This document shows, piece after piece, positions 6,307 through 57,675 of a DNA stretch of 64,000 bases. A program made the translations under genes and the position numbers. The notes beneath the pieces are model-generated. The model was given only the letters and a program-made list of their open reading frames with translations. It ran no database searches and had not been told where the DNA came from. Source of the DNA: Candidatus Omnitrophota bacterium. Lineage in GTDB: Bacteria; Omnitrophota; Gorgyraeia; Gygaellales; Profunditerraquicolaceae. The number at the start of each line of letters is the position of its first letter. The stretch's first letter is position 1. Location: assembly GCA_028717245.1 (NCBI GenBank), contig JAQUOD010000001.1:309324-373323 (forward strand), written 5' to 3'.

Positions 6307-7164
6307 TTATTTCTCCTTTCGCGAACTTATTTTTTTAACGATATCCCCAACTAACCATTCCGGCGTGGAAGCGCCGCTGATCAAACCGACCCTATCGGCC
6401 TTTTTTAATATACCGGATAACGGCGTTCCTTTATTTTCCACCAGATACGTTCTTTTATTAATTTTGCGGCCTATGGAAAAGAGCCTCTTAGTGTTGGCGC
6501 TTAGGCGCGAACCAACAACCAAAAGGACATCTACGGACTTAGCCAGTTTTCCAGCTTCATCCTGCCTGCGGGCCGTATCCAAACATATGGTGTTATAAAT
6601 ATGCACCTCCTTTACCAAAGGATTTTTCTCTAGAATTTTATTGACTATCTTAAAAAACATGTCCTGCGCCTGCGTAGTCTGGGAAATAATCCCTATTTTC
6701 CTATATGAGAACCAGCCCTGTTTTATATCTTTTATCCTATCGATAGTATGCGCTCCTATAGCCAAATCCAATAACGCCTTTATCTCAGGATGCCTGCGTT
6801 CGCCGATAATGATAACTTCTAGCCCCTGTTCGTGGAGCATGGCGCAGGTCTTCTGCACCAAGGAGACATAAGGACAAGTTACGTCTATAAGCCTTAATTT
6901 TTTCTTTTTTGCGGTTTTTAATATATTGCGCGCAGTGCCGTGGGAGGGTAATATAAGGACGGATGATTCCTTTAGATTATCTAACGATTTTACTACGCAC
7001 AGGCCCCTTCTTTCCAGGCGTTTTATTACCTCGGGGTTATGTATGACCGGCCCCAGCGAATAAATAATGCCTTTATTTCTATTAAGCGCCCCTTCAACAA
7101 TATCTATTGCCCGCTTAACCCCTAAACAGAAACCAATATTCTTCGCTAATTTGATTCCTCGCAT
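6307..7164 (-). CDS. ispH: 4-hydroxy-3-methylbut-2-enyl diphosphate reductase
   Basis: GFCLGVKRAI...HNPEV motif. Adjacent to rpsA, a known ispH-rpsA association. Confidence 0.9.
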   Translation of the reverse strand: MRGIKLAKNIGFCLGVKRAIDIVEGALNRNKGIIYSLGPVIHNPEVIKRLERRGLCVVKSLDNLKESSVLILPSHGTARNILKTAKKKKLRLIDVTCPYVSLVQKTCAMLHEQGLEVIIIGERRHPEIKALLDLAIGAHTIDRIKDIKQGWFSYRKIGIISQTTQAQDMFFKIVNKILEKNPLVKEVHIYNTICLDTARRQDEAGKLAKSVDVLLVVGSRLSANTKRLFSIGRKINKRTYLVENKGTPLSGILKKADRVGLISGASTPEWLVGDIVKKISSRKEK

Positions 7165-10317: not shown

Positions 10318-10342
10318 ACTGATTATTGTTAAAATTAGTTCA

Positions 10343-10420
10343 TTGAGTTTATTGAGTTCATAGAGTTATTGAGTTATACATGGTTTAACTCAAAAAACTC
10401 AACAAACTCAAGTAACTCAA
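10343..10420. repeat. phased heptamer array: 4 x TTGAGTT then 4 x AACTCAA (long imperfect palindrome) between proA and nadD
   Basis: TTGAGTT at 10343, 10352, 10361 (TAGAGTT) and 10369. AACTCAA at 10387, 10396, 10405 and 10414. Spacing is 8-9 bp in both arms. Confidence 0.8.
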
Positions 10421-10424
10421 CAAA

Positions 10425-15919: not shown

Positions 15920-16032
15920 ATCTCTAAGCGCTATTGTAAGTTACTGTAACTTAATAGTCAAGGAAAAACAAAGCGGCTGCCTTGTCTTGCTTTCTCATAA
16001 GCACCGCTTTAGTTTTCACTTAATAAGAAGCA

Positions 16033-16413
16033 GCGGGTCCTGCCGTGGGGGCGCCTCTCGTCAAATTTTCCTCGAGGCATCCCCCGCGTCACCCGCTGGA
16101 CATATTTAACCAGACAGTCTAAGTCCGTTCGTATCTTAAAGATGCTGTTCGAAAACACCCAAGCCACCCGCTAAATATGAATCTGACGAGTCACAATAAA
16201 TGAATCTGGCGGTTTTCGAGCGAATGGAGGTTTTAGCCAATGGAGCTTGAGCATTGAGGGAATCCCCGTGGAGCGAAGCGACAAAACGGGGATGGCGAAG
16301 CTGTTTGAGCAGCATTTGTTAGAACAAATGCTGCGAGTTCTGCAGCCACCGAAAATGCGAAAGATCATTGGCGTTAAAAAACCGACTTGAGCGAGAAAAC
16401 TGACAGATTCATT
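16033..16413. repeat. modular intergenic element, copy A (candidate structured ncRNA or MITE-like repeat)
   Basis: Shares a 5' module with copy B: GCGGGTCCTGCCG...GAGGCATCNCCCGCGTCACCCGCT. Carries the core AAATGAATCTGGCGGTTTTCGAGCGAATGGAGGTTTTAGCCAA and a 3' CAGATTCATT that pairs with the core. A/B differences are compensatory in stems. Confidence 0.7.
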
Positions 16414-21584: not shown

Positions 21585-23849
21585 TTATCGCACTACAGAA
21601 GCTGATTGCGAGCCGGGCTTAGGCGCATGATAATCTTGATTAAAATTAAACTCCAGCTCAGGAAATGCCTTTAGCCTAAAAACAAACCAGATGCTTTCGC
21701 CGTAGCCTCTTTTAACATTGTAGGTAACATCCCAAGTCCAACAGTGTAAATCTCTGGATATGGTATATTCCTGTTCTCTTAAACCCCTGGCCCTATTCGT
21801 TTCGTGCCCCCTATAGTATCTCTGATAAGCCGAGAACTTCCATTTAGGAGTCAAGCGCCACTTTAGATCATAGGTTATTTCATTGCCGCCTTTTATCTCA
21901 TAACGCTGCCCTACCCCGAATGAGCGTTCATTCCCAAAATCAAAATTAATATCATAATTACCGTTAGAGAAATGGTTGTATTTAGGGTCAGAGCGGGCCC
22001 CGGAATGCGTATAGGTGGCATCAGCATCTATATGCATCCATGAATATGGCAAGATTCGCAAATCAAAGAGGACATCAGAGAAGCCGCTGCCCCGCTTACT
22101 CCTTCCTTCCGAGATAGATTTAGGTTTATATACATAGGAGGTATTGATGCGTAAATCCGCAAAATCCACGCTTTTATTATTACGTTTTGTCTGCAGTTTA
22201 TTGGATATTTCAAAAGCCGGAGAGTTGCTGCTGGTATCAATCGTATCTACATCATCTATCTGCCTAAGCTTAGCGCTTCCTATGGTAGGCTCGTGACGAT
22301 AGGTATAACTTACGGTAGGCGTAATGATATGCCTTAAGCCGTTTATATCTAACCCTAAAAAGTTGCTCTTTATATCAAATATACGGTAAAATTTAGTGCT
22401 CATATCCGCCCCGCCATAAAAAATAGTGCGCGGGGCTTCGTCGGAAGCGCTAACCGCCTTTTTATCGTAAAAGGTCAGGCGGTCCATAACAAAAGGAGTG
22501 AAATTGATAAAAGCTACCTTCATAGGTATGGACAGCTTATTACTGGTATCCAGCCTGTCCACGTGGGCATCAGGATTAGTATCGTTTGCCGTAGGCGTCA
22601 TGGTGCTGGTGTTCTTCTTATTATAACTGCCCGCAGAAGTAGTATCTTCAAAATAAAATGGGCTGTCTAAAATCTGGTAACTGGGCAGGCTATATTTTAC
22701 TTCGGGGAGCTTTTCCAAATAACCCGGGTCATACCAACGGTTAGTACGTTTCTGCACAAGTATATCTAAGCTGGAATAATTGAAACTGTGGTGCAATAAG
22801 GCATAACTCAGCGGTTGGCTATCCTTTTCGTATTCACGATAGAAATAATCTTTCAGAAAATTATATGTAGGGCCCTTGATCGCCATCTTAGAATCCGTAA
22901 TTTTATAATATTCTGAGGTAAAATCTGTTCTTTCGTCTATAGTCCACTTGTGCCGCCAACGGATAAGGTATCTTTGGAATATTCTGGGATTGCTATTGTC
23001 TTTGGGAAGGGTATGGTCTCTTTCCTGGGTATAATAATATTTGAAATCGCCTCTTCCGAAATTTTCACTTTTATAATTAGCCCCAAAACCTTCTGCTACG
23101 CCGAGTTTAGTGCGATAATCCAGGTAAATCCTGCCGTTGATATTATCGGTAAAGCTGTATCTCCAGGCGCTGAGCATATAAGGGCCCCATTCTTTTTTCT
23201 TACCGGGCGTTAACTGCACGTGCGCCATCGGGTCCTTCAGGTTATGGTTGTATCGGGGAAGATACAATATGGGCACCTTACCTATGTAGAAAGCATTATC
23301 CTTAGCCTGGATCTTGTCATTCGGAAAAACATCTATCTTTCCGGATTTAATACGGTAATGGGGATTATCATAACTACAAGTGGTAAAATATCCCCGGTTA
23401 GCTATAAATTCGCTATCGCTCACCTTCTCTACGTTCTCTGCCCTGCCGAAATAGGGATTAGCCCGAAAACCTGAATCAATAATAATGCCTTTCTTGGTCT
23501 GGAAATTATATTTTATTTTTTTTCCCTCTACTATCCCTTCCTTATCTTCCAGCCTGACATCGCCTTCGGCCTGTGCATCCTTAGTCTGGGTGTTTACGCT
23601 CAACTTATGGCAGGTCAGCTTGCTGCCTTTATAGATTACCGATACGTTTCCCGTAGCAGTCACTTCTTTGGCATCGGTAGAATATTCAACCGTATCGCCG
23701 TTCACAATAATAGCTTCGTCTTTTTTCTCTTGGGCGTATAAGCTGTAAGCTGTAAGCTGTAAGCTGTAAGCGAAAATAAAAAAGGACAGTGAAATCATCC
23801 TAAGAAATTTCAACTTTTGAACTGTGATTTCTAATTTATGACTTATCAC
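21585..23849 (-). CDS. lptD: LPS-assembly protein LptD (OstA family)
   Basis: 754 aa with OstA N-domain and large beta-barrel region. The annotated GTG start is doubtful; an internal ATG (MISLSFFIF...) about 16 codons downstream fits a signal peptide better. Confidence 0.8.
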   Translation of the reverse strand: MISHKLEITVQKLKFLRMISLSFFIFAYSLQLTAYSLYAQEKKDEAIIVNGDTVEYSTDAKEVTATGNVSVIYKGSKLTCHKLSVNTQTKDAQAEGDVRLEDKEGIVEGKKIKYNFQTKKGIIIDSGFRANPYFGRAENVEKVSDSEFIANRGYFTTCSYDNPHYRIKSGKIDVFPNDKIQAKDNAFYIGKVPILYLPRYNHNLKDPMAHVQLTPGKKKEWGPYMLSAWRYSFTDNINGRIYLDYRTKLGVAEGFGANYKSENFGRGDFKYYYTQERDHTLPKDNSNPRIFQRYLIRWRHKWTIDERTDFTSEYYKITDSKMAIKGPTYNFLKDYFYREYEKDSQPLSYALLHHSFNYSSLDILVQKRTNRWYDPGYLEKLPEVKYSLPSYQILDSPFYFEDTTSAGSYNKKNTSTMTPTANDTNPDAHVDRLDTSNKLSIPMKVAFINFTPFVMDRLTFYDKKAVSASDEAPRTIFYGGADMSTKFYRIFDIKSNFLGLDINGLRHIITPTVSYTYRHEPTIGSAKLRQIDDVDTIDTSSNSPAFEISNKLQTKRNNKSVDFADLRINTSYVYKPKSISEGRSKRGSGFSDVLFDLRILPYSWMHIDADATYTHSGARSDPKYNHFSNGNYDINFDFGNERSFGVGQRYEIKGGNEITYDLKWRLTPKWKFSAYQRYYRGHETNRARGLREQEYTISRDLHCWTWDVTYNVKRGYGESIWFVFRLKAFPELEFNFNQDYHAPKPGSQSASVVR

Positions 23850-23892
23850 TTATAGCTTATAGCTTATAACTTATAGCTTATAACTTATAACT
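23736..23892. repeat. two tandem short-repeat blocks at the lptD 5' end: (GCTGTAAG)x4.5 at 23740-23771 inside the coding region, and (CTTATAR)x7 at 23841-23892 across the start
   Basis: Read directly from the sequence. The in-frame octamer block encodes AYSLQLTAYSLYA in the LptD signal-peptide region. Confidence 0.9.
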
Positions 23893-25516: not shown

Positions 25517-25563
25517 AGTTATTTATTCTATATGAAAGTTACGATAATTTCAATAGATAATAT

Positions 25564-25874
25564 TTTAGCGGGTCCTGCCGCGTGAGCGCCTCTCGCCAAA
25601 TTTGGCTCGAGGCATCTCCCGCGTCACCCGCTAAAGATAAATATGTCAACTTGCAACAAATGAATCTGGCGGTTTTCGAGCGAATGGAGGTTTTAGCCAA
25701 AGCAGCTTGAGTGAACGAGGGAATCCGAACGCGGAAGCATTCGGACAGCGAGGATGTTTGAGCCCGTCCTGGCGAAGCCGACGGGCGAGTTCCGCAGCTG
25801 CCGAGTTCACGAAAGACCTTTGGCGTGCCCGATAGGGCAAAACCGACTTGAGCGAGAAAATCGACAGATTCATT
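25564..25874. repeat. modular intergenic element, copy B
   Basis: Begins TTTAGCGGGTCCTGCCG and ends CAGATTCATT. Has the same core as copies A and C, plus the conserved TTTGAGC-hairpin-CGAGTTC module with a different stem sequence than A. Confidence 0.7.
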
Positions 25875-25889
25875 TGTACGGTAGGCTTG

Positions 25890-30119: not shown

Positions 30120-30144
30120 TTTCCCGTATTGTGTATCGCGTTAT

Positions 30145-30162
30145 GCGTATTGCGCAATACGC
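30145..30162. promoter_or_regulatory. perfect 18-bp palindrome GCGTATTGCGCAATACGC upstream of accD, embedded in CGCAATAC/GTATTGCG repeats
   Basis: The sequence reads identically on both strands. Extra copies of the 8-mer lie at 30166-30174 and, degenerate, at 30125-30140. Confidence 0.75.
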
Positions 30163-30180
30163 CATACGCAATACTCGCTC

Positions 30181-32998: not shown

Positions 32999-33007
32999 TC
33001 TTAGTTT

Positions 33008-33046
33008 TAAGCTGTAAGCTTTAAGCTTACGGCTTACTGCTTAAGA
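33008..33046. repeat. GTAAG-family heptamer tandem repeat / hairpin in the dnaK-dnaJ intergenic region
   Basis: AGCTGTAAGCTTTAAGCTTACGGCTTACTGCTTAAGACTTACC. Contains a 9-bp stem GCTGTAAGC/GCTTACGGC with loop TTTAA. Confidence 0.7.
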
Positions 33047-34960
33047 CTTACCACTTTTATCATCTTCTTCCTTAAAATCCGCGTCTATAATATCTTCGTC
33101 TTTTCCGCCGGAGGCGGATCCGCCTTCGGCGGACTTCTTATCCTCTGGCTCTTCAGTTTGCTCCTGGCCTCTTGCACCTTGCGCCTGGCCCTGTTGCTGC
33201 TGTTTCTGCGCTGCCTGCTTATATATTTCTTCTGCTAATTTATGCGAGGCCTTGGTTAAATCCTCTGAGCCCCTTTTGATCCTATCAACGTTCTTATCTT
33301 TTATAGCTGCCTTAAGGTCATTGAGCTTTGCTTCTATATCTAAGCGCTCTGCCTGGGAGACTTTATCGCCGAATTCTTTCAGGGATTTCTCCGTAGCGTA
33401 AACAAGATTGTCTGCCTGGTTAATGACTTCTACTTCTTCTTTCTTCTTTGTGTCTTCGGCGGCAAACTTTTCCGCATCCCTGACCATCTTATCGATTTCT
33501 TCTTTAGAGAGCTTCTTGGGTGCGGTAATGCGTATGGATTGTTCTTTGCCTGTGCCTAAATCCTTGGCAGAAACGTGCACAATCCCGTCACGGTCAATAT
33601 CAAATTTTACCTCTATCTGCGGAACGCCGCGCGGAGCCGCGGGAATACCTACCAGGTCAAACCTGCCCAATTCCACGTTATCATCGGCCATCTGGCGTTC
33701 GCCCTGAAGCACGCGGATAGTCACCGCCGTCTGATTATCGGCAGCTGTGGAAAATATCTGGCTCTTTTGCGTAGGGATAGATGCGTTTCTTTCAATCAAT
33801 TTTGTATCTACTCCGCCTAAGGTTTCAATACCGAGGGATAGCGGGGTAACATCCAAAAGCAATACATCTTTAACATCCCCCTTTATAATCGCTGCCTGTA
33901 TTGCAGCGCCTAAGGCAACGCACTCCATGGGGTCGACTCCGCGCTCTATTTTCTTGCCGACATAATCCTCGACAAATTTCTGCACGATAGGCATACGCGT
34001 AGGCCCGCCGACCATGATAATCCTGTCTATATCTTTGGGCGTCAATTTGGCATCGCTGATTGCCTGCTCCATGGGGTGGCGGCACCGGTCAATTATAGGC
34101 GAAATCAAATCCTCTAATTTTGCGCGGGTGATGGTCATGGTTAAATGCTTAGGGCCGGTGGCGTCTGCCGTGATAAAAGGTAAATTGATATCCGTGCTTA
34201 CCGTAGAGGATAATTCTATCTTGGCCTTCTCCGCTGCCTCGCGTAACCTCTGCACAGCCATCTTGTCATTCATCAGGTCTATCCCGGTTTCGCGTTTAAA
34301 TTGCCCGGCAATATGTTCAAGTAATACCTTATCCATATCTGTGCCGCCTAATTGCGTATCGCCTGATGTTGACTGCACATGGAATACGCCTTGAGCCATT
34401 TCCATTATAGTGACATCCAGGGTTCCGCCGCCTAAATCAAAGACCATGATCTTCTGCTCTTTCTGCGCTTTTTCAAGGCCATAAGCCAGGCAGGCTGCGG
34501 TCGGTTCGTTTATAATCCTTAATACTCTTAAACCCGCTATTTCACCGGCATCCTTAGTAGCTGTCCTCTGGTTATCATCAAAATATGCGGGGCAGGTAAT
34601 TACCACTTCCTCAACTTTATCTCCGAGATACGCCTCCGCATCCTGCTTTATCTTTTGCAGGATAAAAGCGGAGATCTGTTGCGGCGTATATTCCTTGCCG
34701 AAAACTTTAAACTTAAAGTCAGTACCCATCTTACGTTTAGCAGCTTGTATAGTACCTTCTGCGTTAATTGCTGCCTGGCGCCTAGCCGGCTCGCCGACTA
34801 AACGCTGGCCGTCTTTGGTAAAAGCAACGTAAGAAGGGAATGCCTTGCCTGATGCCACGCCCGCGCCTTCGGCAGACGGGATTATTACGGGCCTGCCGCC
34901 TTCCATCACTGCTGCTGCCGAGTTAGATGTCCCTAAGTCAATACCTATCACTTTAGCCAT
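33041..34960 (-). CDS. dnaK: molecular chaperone DnaK
   Basis: [16 protein letters not shown] and VGGPTRMP Hsp70 signatures. Confidence 0.97.
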
Positions 34961-34987
34961 ATTGCACCTCCGTAAATTTTAAATTAT

Positions 34988-35080
34988 CCAATTGCTAAAT
35001 CCCAATTAATTTCCAATTATTCAATTACCAATTGTAGAATTGGGCATTGGTAATTTATTGGACATTGGAAATTGGGAATT
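34988..35080. repeat. CCAATT/AATTGG palindromic element, copy 1, in the dnaK leader
   Basis: 4-5 x CCAATT, then 5 x ATTGG inverted. About 93 percent identical over about 95 nt to the copy at 51105-51210. Confidence 0.85.
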
Positions 35081-35087
35081 ATAAAAT

Positions 35088-35639
35088 TTATTTCTGTTTA
35101 CTAACCTTCACTTTCGCCGTCCTGATAATCCGGTCATTCAATAAATAACCTTTTTGTAATTCCTCTATAACGGTGTGCTCCGGCACATCAATGTCTTCTG
35201 CCTGCATCAGCGCTTCGTGGTAATGCGGGTCAAATAACTTACCCTCTGCCTCGATGGGTTTAACCCCGTATTCTTTCAGCATTTCGTAAAGATGCGCCAG
35301 GATCATTTCTACGCCTTTTAAAAAAACCGGCAGGTCCTGGTGTTTAGACTGGGCTAATTCCACAGTGCGCTCTAAATCATCCAGTATATTTAATAATTCT
35401 AGAATAATGCCTTCGTTAGCAAATTTTACAAAATCCTGCTTTTCCTTCTCTAAACGCTTACGCGTATTATCAAAATCAGCCTGCAGCCGCAGCAACCTGT
35501 CCCAGTATTCCTTAGCTTTTTCTGCCTCTTCCTTTAACTTCAGGTATTCGGATTCTGGCAAAGAAACGGTCTTTTCTTCTTTTGCGGGCGCTTCGGTGTG
35601 CTTTTTATCCTCTTGCTGATTTTGTTTCTGGGGCTGCAT
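35088..35639 (-). CDS. grpE: nucleotide exchange factor GrpE (start placed at internal ATG with SD)
   Basis: The ORF track extends to 35798, but AAGGATGACGATG gives an SD plus ATG at 35639. GrpE coiled-coil and beta domain follow. Confidence 0.85.
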   Translation of the reverse strand: MQPQKQNQQEDKKHTEAPAKEEKTVSLPESEYLKLKEEAEKAKEYWDRLLRLQADFDNTRKRLEKEKQDFVKFANEGIILELLNILDDLERTVELAQSKHQDLPVFLKGVEMILAHLYEMLKEYGVKPIEAEGKLFDPHYHEALMQAEDIDVPEHTVIEELQKGYLLNDRIIRTAKVKVSKQK

Positions 35640-36400: not shown

Positions 36401-36427
36401 TTAGCGCTTCCACCATAAGAATGCTAA
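36401..36427. promoter_or_regulatory. CIRCE operator 2 (TTAGCGCTT-N9-GAATGCTAA), immediately downstream of the hrcA promoter -10
   Basis: Matches the CIRCE consensus TTAGCACTC-N9-GAGTGCTAA at 14/18 arm positions. Promoter TTGACA (36456-36461) -16- TAGAAT (36434-36439) on the minus strand. Confidence 0.8.
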
Positions 36428-36492
36428 AAGTTAATTCTAACATAATTTTCCGCTTTGTCAATCCAGCTCTTTATCGAGATATACTATATAAT

Positions 36493-36519
36493 TTAGCGCC
36501 CTCAACCATAGAGTGCTAA
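36493..36519. promoter_or_regulatory. CIRCE operator 1 (TTAGCGCCC-N9-GAGTGCTAA)
   Basis: 15/18 arm matches to the CIRCE consensus. Located upstream of the -35 element. Confidence 0.8.
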
Positions 36520-48434: not shown

Positions 48435-50190
48435 ATTCCTGCCACAATTCCTGCGGCAGGCTTCTTTTGAATTGTTTAAAGAACGCCTTGATGCCTTTTA
48501 ATTCCTCAAGCCAGGCCTGTTTATCTATCGCCAGGAGTTTCTCCATGGCCCCGGCGGATAATTGCAGGCCGGTCATATCTATATCAGAATTGCTGGGGAT
48601 ATAGCCGATAGGCGTTTTTACTGCCTCTACCTTATTGTTGCAACGGTCTAATATCCATTCTAAAATTCTTAAGTTCTCTCCAAAACCCGGCCAGAGGAAT
48701 TTATTTTCCGCATCGACCCTGAACCAGTTTACATGGAAAATTTTAGGGGGCTTAACCATGCGCCTGCCCATTTCTAACCAATGCCGGAAATAATCCGCCA
48801 TATTATAACCGCAGAAAGGCAGCATAGCCATGGGGTCGCGGCGTACCTGGCCGATCTTTCCGACTTGCGCAGCAGTCAATTCAGAGGCCATAGCCGCTCC
48901 TAAAAATACGCCGTGCTGCCAGCTAAATGATTCCTGGACTAAAGGCGCAAGATGCGCCCGGCGCCCGCCAAAAATAATAGCGGAAATAGGTACGCCATGA
49001 TGTTGCTCTATCCTGAATGAAGCAGTAGGGCAATTAGTAATGGGGGTAGTAAAACGGCTATTAGGATGTGCGCCTAAAACAACTTTCCCATGAGCATCAA
49101 CTATACCCGGTTTCCAGGCCCTACCCTGCCAGTCAATGCCTCCGGAAGGAACTTCACCGTCAGCCCCCTCCCACCATACTGTGCCGTCTGGTTTTAAAAG
49201 AACATTGGTATAAATAGTATCTTTCTTGATAGTCTCAACCATATTAGGGTTGGTTTTAGAATTCGTCCCCAAGGCAACCCCAAAAAAACCCGTCTCCGGA
49301 TTAACTGCCCAGAGCGAGCCGTCAGAATCAATGCGCATCCAGGCAATATCATCGCCTACTGTCCAAATACGGTAACCTTTTTTCTTCAGGCCTTCAGGGG
49401 GAACGAGCATCGCCAGGTTTGTTTTACCGCAAGCGCTGGGGAATGCTGCGGCAATATATTCGACATGGCCGCTAGGCTCTTCAATACCCATAATCAACAT
49501 ATGCTCGGCAAACCATTTTTCTTTTCTGGCCAGAAAACTGGCGATACGTAATGAAAGGCATTTTTTACCCAGCAGTACATTCCCGCCATATCCGGAACCC
49601 ACGCTCCAGATAGTATTATCCTGGGGGAAGTGCAATATCAATCTCTTATTTATATCCAACTGGGCCTTGGAGTGAAGGCATTTGGTAAACTCAATATCCT
49701 TATCCAGCTGCTTAAGGACTGCTTCTCCGGCGCGGGTCATGATTAACATATTCAGCACTACGTAGCGCGAATCGGTTAATTCTATGCCGATCTTGCTAAA
49801 GGTAGAGCCCACCGGCCCCATGGAGAAAGGAATAACATACATCGTCCTTCCTTTCATCGCACCCTGAAAAATTACTTTCGCTTTTCTATAAGCTACCCCG
49901 GGAGACATCCAGTTATTTGTTACTCCGGCGTCGCGTTTTCTCTTTGTGCAGATAAAGGTAAGGTGTTCTGTACGCGCTACGTCATCAGTACTGGTGCGGT
50001 GCAGAAAACAACCCGGGAGTTTATCCTGATTTAAAGGAATAATCTCCCCCTGGGCAATGGCTTCTTCTTCTATTTTCTTTCTCTGGGCCTCTGAACCGTC
50101 TATCCAGGCTATCTCATCCGGCTGACAGAGTTTGGCCATTTTATTGACCCACTTAACCAATTTTTTATTACGGGTGGGGAATTTAATCAT
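48397..50190 (-). CDS. pckG: phosphoenolpyruvate carboxykinase (GTP)
   Basis: 597 aa, GTP-PEPCK kinase-1a/P-loop region [10 protein letters not shown]. Confidence 0.92.
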
Positions 50191-51095
50191 TTATTTAATA
50201 GGTATTTATGCGCGGAATCAGCGGCTTGCGCGCCTTCTGCGCAGGCGGTAATGACCTGATATAAACCTTTTTTACGGCAGTCTCCGCAGGCAAATACGCC
50301 CTCACAAGAAGCCTTCATGTCCTGGTCAGTCATTATAAAGCCGGCTTCGTCCATATTCAATTGATTTTTTAGGAAAATAGTATTCGGCTCTATGCCCACG
50401 AATATGAATACCCCCTGCGTAGAAAGTTCGCTCGTAGAACCTGTTTTAACATCTTTAAGCTTCACTGACTCTGCCTTATCCTTGCCTTTGATTTCTTCTA
50501 TAACGGTATCCAAAATAAAATTTATCTTAGGATTCTGCCGCGCCTTCTCTTCTAATATTTTTGATGCCCGCAGGGCCTGGCGGCGATGAATAACATTAAC
50601 TTTTTTGGCATAGCTGCTTAAAAAAAGCGCATCTTCTATAGCCCTGTCTCCCCCTCCGACGACTATGATATCTTTATCTCTGAATAATGGCCCGTCGCAG
50701 GTACCGCAATAAGAAACGCCCCGTCCGGTAAGCCTTTCTTCACCTGCTACACCCAGGCGCTTAGGTTTAGCTCCGCTGGCAATAACCACTGTCTTGGCCC
50801 GATATTCCTCCTCTCTACCGGATATTTTAGATTCGGGGCCAAAAATTATTTTCTGCGCTTCGTCGATTTTTATTTCCACATCTAATTCTTCAACTTGTTT
50901 CTGCATTGAAGAAATAAGCTTGTCGGTAATCACCCCCCCGGAGAAACCGGGAAAATTTTCAATAGTAGGAGTCAAAATAACTTGCCCTCCTAAACTCATC
51001 TTCTCCAAAAGCAGGGTCTTCATACGGAACCTGCCTGCATACAGGGCGCAAGTCAATCCTGCAGGCCCGCCTCCGATAATAATCAAATCATACAT
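50187..51095 (-). CDS. trxB: thioredoxin-disulfide reductase
   Basis: IIGGGPAG FAD motif; redox CGTCD-like CxxC (CGTCDG). Confidence 0.92.
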   Translation of the reverse strand: MYDLIIIGGGPAGLTCALYAGRFRMKTLLLEKMSLGGQVILTPTIENFPGFSGGVITDKLISSMQKQVEELDVEIKIDEAQKIIFGPESKISGREEEYRAKTVVIASGAKPKRLGVAGEERLTGRGVSYCGTCDGPLFRDKDIIVVGGGDRAIEDALFLSSYAKKVNVIHRRQALRASKILEEKARQNPKINFILDTVIEEIKGKDKAESVKLKDVKTGSTSELSTQGVFIFVGIEPNTIFLKNQLNMDEAGFIMTDQDMKASCEGVFACGDCRKKGLYQVITACAEGAQAADSAHKYLLNK

Positions 51096-51104
51096 AATTC
51101 AATT

Positions 51105-51210
51105 TCCAATTAGCCAATTGCCAAATCCCAATTAATTTCCAATTATTCAATTACCAATTGTAAAATCGGTCATTGGTAATTTATTTGACATTGGAAATTG
51201 GTAATTGGCC
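51105..51210. repeat. CCAATT/AATTGG palindromic element, copy 2; its right arm encodes the last 10 codons and the stop of lipA
   Basis: Near-identical to copy 1. The lipA frame reads through ATTGG repeats to TAA at 51181. Confidence 0.85.
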
Positions 51211-52137
51211 ATTATTGTGTAATAATGCTAGTTCGTTATAAATCTTCCCTGCCTGATAAGAACTGCGTACTTTCGGCCCGGATAATACTGCCTTAAATCC
51301 TAAATCAAGGCCGACCTCTTTATAACGCCTGAATTGCTCAATATTAATGAATTCCTGGACAGGATAGTGTTCTTTAGAAGGCGCCAGGTACTGGCCCAGC
51401 GTCAGAATATCGCATTGGCAATATCTTAAGTCCGCCATAGCCTCTATAATTTCTTCTTCAGTCTCGCCTAAACCCAGCATCAACGAGGACTTGGTGATTA
51501 AGGCACGATTTACACTCTTTATTCTGGCCAGTAATTCTAAAGAACGCAGATAACCTGCCTGCGGCCTTAATTGCGGGTACAACCTGGAGATGGTCTCCAG
51601 ATTATGCGCCAAGACAGCGGGCTTAGACATAATCACAGTTTTGAGGCTGTCAAAATGCCCTGAGAAATCCGGAATCAACGCCTCTATCTTGGTATTTTTA
51701 TTTATCCGGCGGATTAATCCTATTGTCCTGGCAAACTCTCCCGCGCCGCCATCGTTTAAGTCATCCCTGGTAACCGAAGTAATCACCACATAACTTAAAT
51801 CCAATAATTTAATTATCCGGCCGACCTTCCCTGGTTCGTTTTGGTCAATCGGTAAAGTTTTTTTGCTGGTTTTTGTTACGGCGCAGAACCTGCAATCCCT
51901 GGTGCAGGTATCCCCTAAAATCATAAAAGTAAATTCCAGGTTCTTAAAACAACGGCTAAGGTTAGGGCATCTGGCTTCCTGACATACGGTATGCACATTA
52001 AGCCCGGAAAACAAACGCATGCCAGCTTTGGCTTCGGCATCCGGTATATCCTGTCTAAACCACGCAGGCAATCTGTTTTTCACCCCGCTCTTCCTTGATA
52101 TATTTAATTCGTTTATTTTAGGAAGAGCAGGGTTCAT
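51181..52137 (-). CDS. lipA: lipoyl synthase
   Basis: CPNLSRC and CTRDCRFC Fe-S cluster motifs. Confidence 0.93.
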   Translation of the reverse strand: MNPALPKINELNISRKSGVKNRLPAWFRQDIPDAEAKAGMRLFSGLNVHTVCQEARCPNLSRCFKNLEFTFMILGDTCTRDCRFCAVTKTSKKTLPIDQNEPGKVGRIIKLLDLSYVVITSVTRDDLNDGGAGEFARTIGLIRRINKNTKIEALIPDFSGHFDSLKTVIMSKPAVLAHNLETISRLYPQLRPQAGYLRSLELLARIKSVNRALITKSSLMLGLGETEEEIIEAMADLRYCQCDILTLGQYLAPSKEHYPVQEFINIEQFRRYKEVGLDLGFKAVLSGPKVRSSYQAGKIYNELALLHNNGQLPISNVK

Positions 52138-57302: not shown

Positions 57303-57675
57303 GGGTCCTGTCTTGGCTTGTTCTCGCAGCATCGCTCGAAATTCCCAGCGTGAATTTCTCGCTTCGTGAAACTTCTCGCTCTCGATACTAAGCAGGGGCG
57401 AAACGAACCTTGCCCGCTCGAACTTTCAAGATGCTGCTGAAAAACATGCCTCGTTACCCGCTAAAGATAAATATGCTAATTTACAAATGAATCTGGCAGT
57501 TTTCGAGCGAACGTTAGCATTTAGTGGGTGGCTTGGGTGTTTTCGACAGCATGTAGTTTGTGCGAACGGCCAGGGTTCACCCGCTACCACAAATATCAGT
57601 GAGAGTGAGCACAAACTCCAAGCGATCCGCCGTAGGCGGAGAGCGGTGCTGGAGAAAATACCCAAGACAGGACCC
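57303..57675. repeat. modular intergenic element, copy C, bounded by perfect 14-bp terminal inverted repeats GGGTCCTGTCTTGG / CCAAGACAGGACCC
   Basis: Shares with A/B the core TTACCCGCTAAAGATAAATATG...CAAATGAATCTGGCAGTTTTCGAGCGAA. Shares with A the AAGATGCTG.T..GAAAAACA module. Confidence 0.75.

Follow-up and report, generated by a model that had tools for sequence, protein, structure and literature searches.

ERIC/IRU sequences of the Enterobacteriaceae are imperfect palindromes of ~127 bp and are classed as MITEs (Delihas 2011, PMC3184786), as are the Correia elements of Neisseria (NEMIS or CREE, 104-157 bp) and the 107-bp RUP of S. pneumoniae (PMC3184786). Palindromes of the REP/BIME/REPIN type, which go with RAYT transposases, are extragenic, lie between co-directional genes and form hairpins in operon mRNA (PMC3337134). 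Intergenic heptamer repeats, for example TAACTGA, are on record in cyanobacteria, Beggiatoaceae and Bacteroidetes, and the roles proposed for heptamer arrays are transcript stability, translational coupling and regulator binding (PMC2670836; PMC4679880; bioRxiv 10.1101/2022.06.06.494920). No published account of such elements in Omnitrophota was found in the searchable literature.

The window analyzed here is a stretch of 64,000 nt from an Omnitrophota contig, with a G+C content of 43% and all sizeable ORFs on the minus strand. It holds two copies of an AT-rich palindrome, termed here the CCAAT element. The family is new, but its kind, that of MITE/ERIC-like intercistronic palindromes, is familiar; what sets it apart is a distinctive heptad-array build. 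The favored reading, to which a probability of about 0.75 was given, is that the element is a non-coding dispersed repeat of Omnitrophota that inserts between operon genes as a MITE/ERIC-like mobile element and is co-transcribed with them as a long AU-rich hairpin.

The CCAAT element resembles ERIC in its size, its build as a whole-element imperfect palindrome, its place in operon spacers in both orientations, its AT-type termini, its patchy distribution and the mRNA hairpin it would form. It differs in being built of CCAAT heptads at a regular period, their cores conserved and the spacers between them variable, and in its host phylum; the likeness is an analogy by description, with no evident sequence relation between ERIC and the CCAAT heptads. 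With Correia and RUP elements it shares a small non-coding body, inverted ends, a gene-adjoining position, probable co-transcription, fusion or extension of ORFs, and orthologous sites both empty and filled. Correia elements are known for their defined 26-bp TIRs, TA duplication, IHF site, outward promoters and cleavage by RNase III; the CCAAT element differs from them in that its conservation is periodic over its entire length. The REP arrangement of hairpins between co-directional genes is also seen, but REPs are 20-40 nt long, GC-rich, marked by a conserved 5′ tetranucleotide and arranged in inverted doublets, whereas the CCAAT element is ~ 115 nt long and ~ 70% A+T, forms one extended hairpin and lacks any such tetranucleotide, a GTAG-type head included. 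REPs are reportedly able to stabilize upstream mRNA and to affect translation when near a stop codon.

Cyanobacterial STRR arrays, such as the one at hupS/hupL (PMC2670836), share with the CCAAT element a 7-nt unit, an intercistronic or start-adjoining position and the folding of an array with its inverted array into hairpins. They are simple single-unit arrays, however, whereas the CCAAT element is a fixed composite of differing units with aperiodic landmarks that is copied whole. Like the ORF-extending repeats (RPE of Rickettsia, BOX/RUP/SPRITE, Yersinia ERIC; PMC3184786), it supplies 3′-terminal codons and a stop, as in lipA of the window, thrS of locus L139 and prmC of locus L124. RPE lies in frame inside genes, whereas the CCAAT element alters C-terminal tails only, apparently as a by-product of landing at stop/start junctions. 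One STRR unit, which we take to be TTGGTCA, matches the ATTGGTC unit of the CCAAT element.

The two copies in the window, described beforehand as near-identical, proved to be 92% identical over 106 nt (34975-35080 and 51101-51206, in direct orientation on the plus strand) and lie 16 kb apart. A 25-nt core occurs exactly twice in the window, against 0.00 occurrences expected from shuffles. Each copy contains nine CCAAT/ATTGG motifs; no other 120-nt segment of the 64-kb window contains four or more, and no third copy was found in it. Both copies are imperfect palindromes, and whichever strand is folded gives a single extended hairpin, with energies from -27 to -37 kcal/mol and z-scores between -1.9 and -4.4. 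The features of the two sites are:

34958-34960, minus strand: start codon of dnaK.
34965-34971, minus strand: dnaK ribosome-binding site GGAGGTG, just beyond copy 1 and unpaired with it in the predicted fold.
34970-35087, no strand assigned: element copy 1, occupying the entire grpE/dnaK intercistronic spacer; nhmmer match at 34970-35080, 90 bits.
35088-35090, minus strand: grpE stop codon TAA, at the outer edge of the copy 1 palindrome.
36401-36519, no strand assigned: two CIRCE-like inverted repeats (36401-36427 and 36493-36519) upstream of hrcA; context, outside the element.
50187-51095, minus strand: trxB, whose start codon (51093-51095) directly adjoins the end of copy 2.
51096-51215, no strand assigned: element copy 2, between lipA and trxB; nhmmer match at 51098-51214, 101 bits; used in the excision test.
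51181-51215, minus strand: new LipA C terminus (N)NGQLPISNVK, the translated portion of copy 2, with the TAA stop at 51181-51183; from the orthologue alignment.
51181-52137, minus strand: lipA.

At the first site, the spacer between the grpE stop codon and the dnaK start codon is 127 nt long. The part of copy 1 homologous to the family is 34970-35080, and an AT-rich palindromic extension (TAAATTTTA...TAAAATTTA) continues it up to the grpE stop codon. The copy ends ~ 14 nt before the dnaK ATG, just 5′ of the ribosome-binding site. The preliminary description had placed both copies 10-15 nt upstream of a start codon in an mRNA leader; this distance holds for copy 1 but not for copy 2, which abuts the trxB ATG, and copy 1 is an intercistronic spacer within the hrcA-grpE-dnaK-dnaJ operon, not a promoter-proximal leader. 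Two spurious plus-strand ORFs reach or enter the element (50794-51135, antisense to trxB, and 34845-34982, antisense to dnaK) and carry a risk of mis-annotation.

At the second site, the lipA reading frame does run into copy 2, as had been proposed: the last ~ 10 codons and the stop lie within it, and the 85 nt of untranslated spacer upstream of trxB is element sequence throughout. In an alignment with 18 Omnitrophota orthologues of LipA (59-71% identical), every one of them stops ~ 12 residues short of the window protein, at ..EL-xYV*, and none ends as the LipA of the window does, so the ...NGQLPISNVK tail and its stop codon come from the element. The closest relative, L144, has the same gene order (def-lipA-trxB-pckG) without the element, and there the lipA and trxB genes overlap by 8 nt (ATGTATGA), with ...TAT GTA TGA of lipA lying over ATG TAT GA of trxB. 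In silico deletion of the 120 nt at 51096-51215 gave CAC AAT GTA TGA over ATG TAT GAT, which is the same ATGTATGA overlap, and a 309-residue LipA; the right frame would be reached by chance in one case out of three, and the limits of the deletion were taken from the family consensus (by which copy 2 was bounded) and not fitted. The earlier proposal that an insertion had remodeled the end of lipA is borne out by this comparison, and the LipA tail appears to be a side effect of the element having entered the junction where lipA and trxB overlapped. The 120-nt excision is bounded by, and implies, a 2-nt AT direct repeat. For this site, duplication of a TA or TTAA target was considered as well and rejected, since keeping one TA leaves lipA without a stop, whereas the AT-bounded excision works. 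Most copies of the element end in TTAA or TAAA, which could be either a TIR or a TSD.

Further copies were sought outside the window. A hairpin-shaped query against one genome per species led, among many other matches, to the Omnitrophota MAG contig L054, which carries two copies of the same build in 7 kb; an exact 22-mer of the element had no match when each GTDB species was represented by a single genome. Searching JGI metagenomes with a consensus pattern returned 23 loci, 10 of them with true copies, and an nhmmer profile added second copies on L139 and L141. No true copies were present in viral contigs, where the three matches were due to chance and lay inside a coding sequence. The family recovered in this way comprises 16 copies on 12 contigs, the window copies included, so that the element is far from confined to the two loci where it was first noticed. 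Contig L142 carries the element and is collinear with the window over 4.6-12.4 kb at 74-80% amino acid identity, and on L141 all named matches of FabF are to Omnitrophota. At least four Omnitrophota lineages (that of the window and at least three others) thus carry the element. A repeat family is thereby documented in a phylum known from metagenomes only, and its profile could serve as a strain marker.

Copies are 84-143 nt long, typically ~ 115 nt, and ~ 70% A+T, and contain no ORF of their own, with stops in all frames. The ends are AT-rich (consensus TTAAAT-NN-CCAAT ... ATTGG-NN-ATTTAA) and form terminal inverted repeats, the whole element being an imperfect palindrome with 6-7 CCAAT-containing heptads (NNCCAAT) per arm followed by mirrored ATTGGNN heptads. 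From the end inwards come two or three NNCCAAT heptads, CCAAATCCCAAT-KAATYWCCAAT, two more units, a CAATTG-centered loop and then the mirror, which includes ATTCATTGG. The heptad spacing of the CCAAT cores is clear; the units differ at two positions, and units of 8 and 11 nt stand at fixed places. Three aperiodic landmarks, CCAAATCCCAAT, the 11-nt KAATYWCCAAT unit and the mirror ATTCATTGG, recur in the same order across copies. Most of one arm has been lost from the copies on L121 and L124, and within the orthologous pair L123/L139 the L139 copy has one extra 8-nt unit. In the L138 copy (2760-2871) the right arm is interrupted by a GC-rich palindrome nested within it (GCCTGCCTGCCGGCAGGCAGG), which hints at another small palindromic element with hairpins as its targets.

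All copies occupy short spacers of co-directional genes, a few nucleotides from the upstream stop and the downstream Shine-Dalgarno sequence or start, and, judged by the asymmetric landmarks, about half lie in each orientation relative to transcription. The flanking pairs are leuA/aroE, PP-loop ATPase/membrane protein, rplT/trkA (twice, orthologous), thrS/infC, PALP enzyme/coaBC, tig/clpP, fabF/leuC, leuC/leuD, grpE/dnaK and lipA/trxB, together with sites downstream of a carbamoyltransferase gene and of prmC and upstream of dusB and of rpsA. The flanks are housekeeping operons, not a stress regulon. Upstream ORFs end within the element, or on its terminal TAA, in lipA, thrS (L139), prmC (L124) and fabF (L141). 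New C-terminal tails such as those of LipA, ThrS and PrmC, and spurious ORFs such as 50794-51135, matter for the annotation of MAGs.

The distribution of the element is patchy. At fabF/leuC it is present in L141, whereas the site is empty in L151, L152, L154 and L155, where the two genes overlap by 1 nt (TAATG) and FabF is 84% identical; the flanks have diverged between the filled and empty sites, and L141 has an extra 11 nt. The relatives used for the comparisons at lipA/trxB and fabF/leuC are 71-84% identical in protein, so that these junctions are not exact. The grpE/dnaK spacer lacks the CCAAT element in L145, where GrpE is 96% identical and a GC-rich hairpin is found instead, and in L146 and L147, where array palindromes built of other units are found. 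Upstream of rpsA the element is present in L142 and absent from the window; here the window (6307-7164, compared with L142 5331-5494) has a 285-residue gene between rpsA and the orthologue of L142 4756-5346, and L142 has the element in that place. An nhmmer scan of ~ 85 kb of related Omnitrophota loci found no copy. A patchy, lineage-specific distribution together with insertions into junctions that were once gapless fits a mobile element.

The suggestion that the element behaves as a miniature mobile or REP-like sequence is thus upheld in its MITE form: it is small (well below ~ 600 bp) and non-coding, dispersed at unrelated loci and in other genomes, bounded by terminal inverted repeats, and its orthologous sites are found both empty and filled. 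Its conservation is periodic along the full length and not confined to the ends, which is atypical for a decaying MITE, and no transposase adjoining any copy, nor any longer parent element with matching ends, was found on the contigs that carry copies. The CCAAT element would accordingly be a miniature, non-autonomous mobile element of the MITE/ERIC type, probably spread by transposition, that lands at or adjoining the stop/start junctions of co-directional genes in either orientation and, once inserted, would be transcribed within the operon mRNA to give one long AU-rich hairpin. At lipA/trxB, the insertion would have split the ancestral 8-nt stop/start overlap: LipA would have acquired ~ 10 new C-terminal residues and another stop codon within the element, and trxB an 85-nt leader that consists of the element, so that direct translational coupling would have to be lost. 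At grpE/dnaK, the element occupies a spacer in which the relatives, without exception, have a different hairpin. By analogy with REP, ERIC, Correia and the cyanobacterial heptamer hairpins (PMC3184786, PMC2670836), the hairpin may influence mRNA stability and processing, translational coupling and the relative translation of the flanking genes. The element reshapes compact genomes, in that it separates overlapping, presumably translationally coupled pairs such as lipA/trxB and fabF/leuC.

In every copy the predicted fold is one hairpin, with energies between -27 and -68 kcal/mol and z-scores reaching -10. Base-pair covariation was sought with RNAalifold, which found only invariant CCAAT:ATTGG pairs and 0 compensatory pairs. 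Complementarity between the arms was 86% in the CCAAT/ATTGG blocks compared with 49% at the positions between them. In a G-U pair test, the sense RNA was the more stable in 8/14 copies, that is, there was no strand-specific signal, and nothing therefore points specifically to selection on RNA. Outside the stretch by which the copies were found, core columns had a mean pairwise identity of 0.85 compared with 0.51 for inter-core columns (p = 3e-7). The conservation of the cores could be explained by maintenance of the hairpin, by anchoring of the alignment or by protein recognition of a repeated motif.

Several other explanations were weighed against a mobile insertion. The preliminary description had linked the element to stress genes and proposed that, in the leaders of dnaK and trxB specifically, it may act as a long AU-rich hairpin for thermosensing or stability. 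AU-rich hairpins do melt easily, dnaK and trxB are preceded by two of the 16 copies and clpP by another, and copy 1 has a promoter-like TTGGGA-18-TAAAAT on its sense strand. The link is not sustained by the other 14 copies, however, which flank housekeeping pairs such as leuA/aroE, rplT/trkA, thrS/infC and leuC/leuD, nor by the occurrence of both orientations or by the relatives that lack the element at grpE/dnaK and lipA/trxB. As to thermosensing, the hairpin does not take in the dnaK Shine-Dalgarno sequence, and the MFE fold leaves free the 16 nt that precede the trxB AUG. The operators upstream of hrcA, with two to three mismatches to the CIRCE sequence TTAGCACTC-N9-GAGTGCTAA, point to canonical HrcA heat-shock control of the hrcA-grpE-dnaK-dnaJ operon from there. 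Rfam gave no match at the gathering score and only miRNA-like chance matches at permissive thresholds, the PutA thermometer scoring 13 bits against a threshold of 51, and promoter-like matches were at chance level, with none in copy 2. A stress-gene regulatory RNA was considered very improbable on these grounds. Two narrower candidates were rejected as well: a hairpin that hides the start of trxB until ribosomes completing lipA open it, because of the same unpaired 16 nt, and a promoter or terminator inside the element, because of the chance level of the matches. That the element is an intrinsic terminator or attenuator separating transcription units, as a strong hairpin right after stop codons might imply, is scarcely credible either, given an AU-rich stem with no U-tract, no terminator-like site called at either window copy, and copies within classical operons that need read-through (leuC/leuD, thrS/infC and grpE/dnaK) as well as at tig/clpP.

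It could also be that nothing moved, and that the palindromes were made in place by heptad slippage and strand-switch inverted duplication, their likeness being due to convergence or ectopic gene conversion. Orthologous spacers do use other units (TTGAGTT in the window and GTTAGCC in L142; CCAAT, GTGTACA and TAAGTGTG types at grpE/dnaK), orthologous copies can differ in their number of units, as the extra 8-nt unit of L139 relative to L123 shows, and units have gone missing from L121 and L124. This origin was nevertheless judged improbable: the aperiodic landmarks are common to the copies and in the same order, the window copies are 92% identical in spite of the 16 kb between them, the same element is found at unrelated junctions in different genomes, and gapless overlaps (ATGTATGA, TAATG) offered no spacer in which an array could grow. 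A further possibility, compatible with mobility, is that the CCAAT/ATTGG cores are the functional unit and form a multivalent platform of ~ 12 sites at 7-nt spacing for a nucleic acid-binding protein, be it on mRNA, ssDNA or dsDNA; the element would then be one flavor of general intercistronic heptad arrays, retained and perhaps spread for binding rather than selfish. The contrast between core and inter-core identity is in keeping with this, as are the conservation of the cores in genomes from different environments, the several other unit-array palindromes at operon junctions in the window and in relatives, the ACCAATT-heptad palindromes in intergenic spacers of Planctomycetota, Chloroflexota and cyanobacteria, and the proposal that heptamer repeats near start codons in Beggiatoaceae and cyanobacteria are regulator-binding sites (PMC4679880; bioRxiv 10.1101/2022.06.06.494920). 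Yet the conserved cores are the only positions that pair between the arms, so that hairpin maintenance or alignment anchoring could give the same pattern; the cross-phylum matches were pre-selected by the ACCAATT heptad in the query; the array units are wholly unlike one another at orthologous sites, so that a binder specific to one motif could not serve them all; and no candidate protein was identified. A binding platform was therefore regarded as conceivable but unlikely.

More speculatively, and with similarly low expectations, the CCAAT element may be a portable member of a wider layer of operon punctuation in Omnitrophota and apparently in Chloroflexota, Planctomycetota and cyanobacteria. 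Intercistronic junctions would be filled by palindromic arrays of a 7-8-nt unit, the position of an array being conserved from species to species as its unit turns over completely by concerted evolution or cassette replacement. The cores, here ~ 12 CCAAU/AUUGG sites at 7-nt spacing, would be multivalent sites for some abundant protein with affinity for RNA or ssDNA, and this protein would adjust how stable neighboring cistrons are, or how much they are translated, relative to one another. Periodic CCAAT cores and array palindromes at conserved junctions offer a tractable way into the role of intergenic heptamer repeats.

Apart from the CCAAT element, the window has palindromes made of short-unit arrays in three operon spacers: at 10318-10424, at 30120-30180 and, between dnaK and dnaJ, at 32999-33040. 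The unit types are TTGAGTTNN x4 with its mirror (-34.5 kcal/mol), GTATTGC x3 with GCAATAC x4, and TAAGCTN heptads with their mirror; the TAAGCTN palindrome at dnaK/dnaJ is common to the window and L146. Plain heptad arrays are also present, with TATAAGY in a spacer (23850-23892) and TAAGCTG x5 within an apparent signal-peptide coding start (23732-23783). Orthologous Omnitrophota spacers were compared in pairs (L142 2041-2130 with window 10318-10424; L146 3300-3378, L147 3780-3872 and L145 660-737 with window 34961-35087; L153 12631-12762 with L141 5678-5794). All of them have a hairpin, and the sequences are unrelated, the array units being GTTAGCCN, GTGTACA, TAAGTGTG and TGTGTAA, with one GC-rich stem. 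Across these pairs, the position and architecture of the hairpins are conserved and the unit sequence turns over.

Hairpins of the form (AATTACC)n-loop-(GGTAATT)n were also found in intergenic spacers of other phyla, although the query contained the heptad and over-representation is not established. The loci are L023, L033, L064, L065 and L077 (Planctomycetota FR_29), L032, L108, L109 and L118, then L003, L006, L007 and L051 (Chloroflexota) and L053 (a cyanobacterium). The Planctomycetota hairpins are a family of their own with AACAGC...GCTGTT flanks, forming AT-rich islands in genomes of 65% G+C, and those of Chloroflexota occupy the spacers of co-directional genes. Finally, a second, unrelated intergenic repeat family of ~ 300 nt is present in the window at 16032-16413, 25567-25877 and 57303-57675, with 72-89% identity and internal inverted repeats. 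Rfam gave no match even at E<=1, and the spacer at 25517-25889, which contains one of these repeats, folds to -142 kcal/mol.
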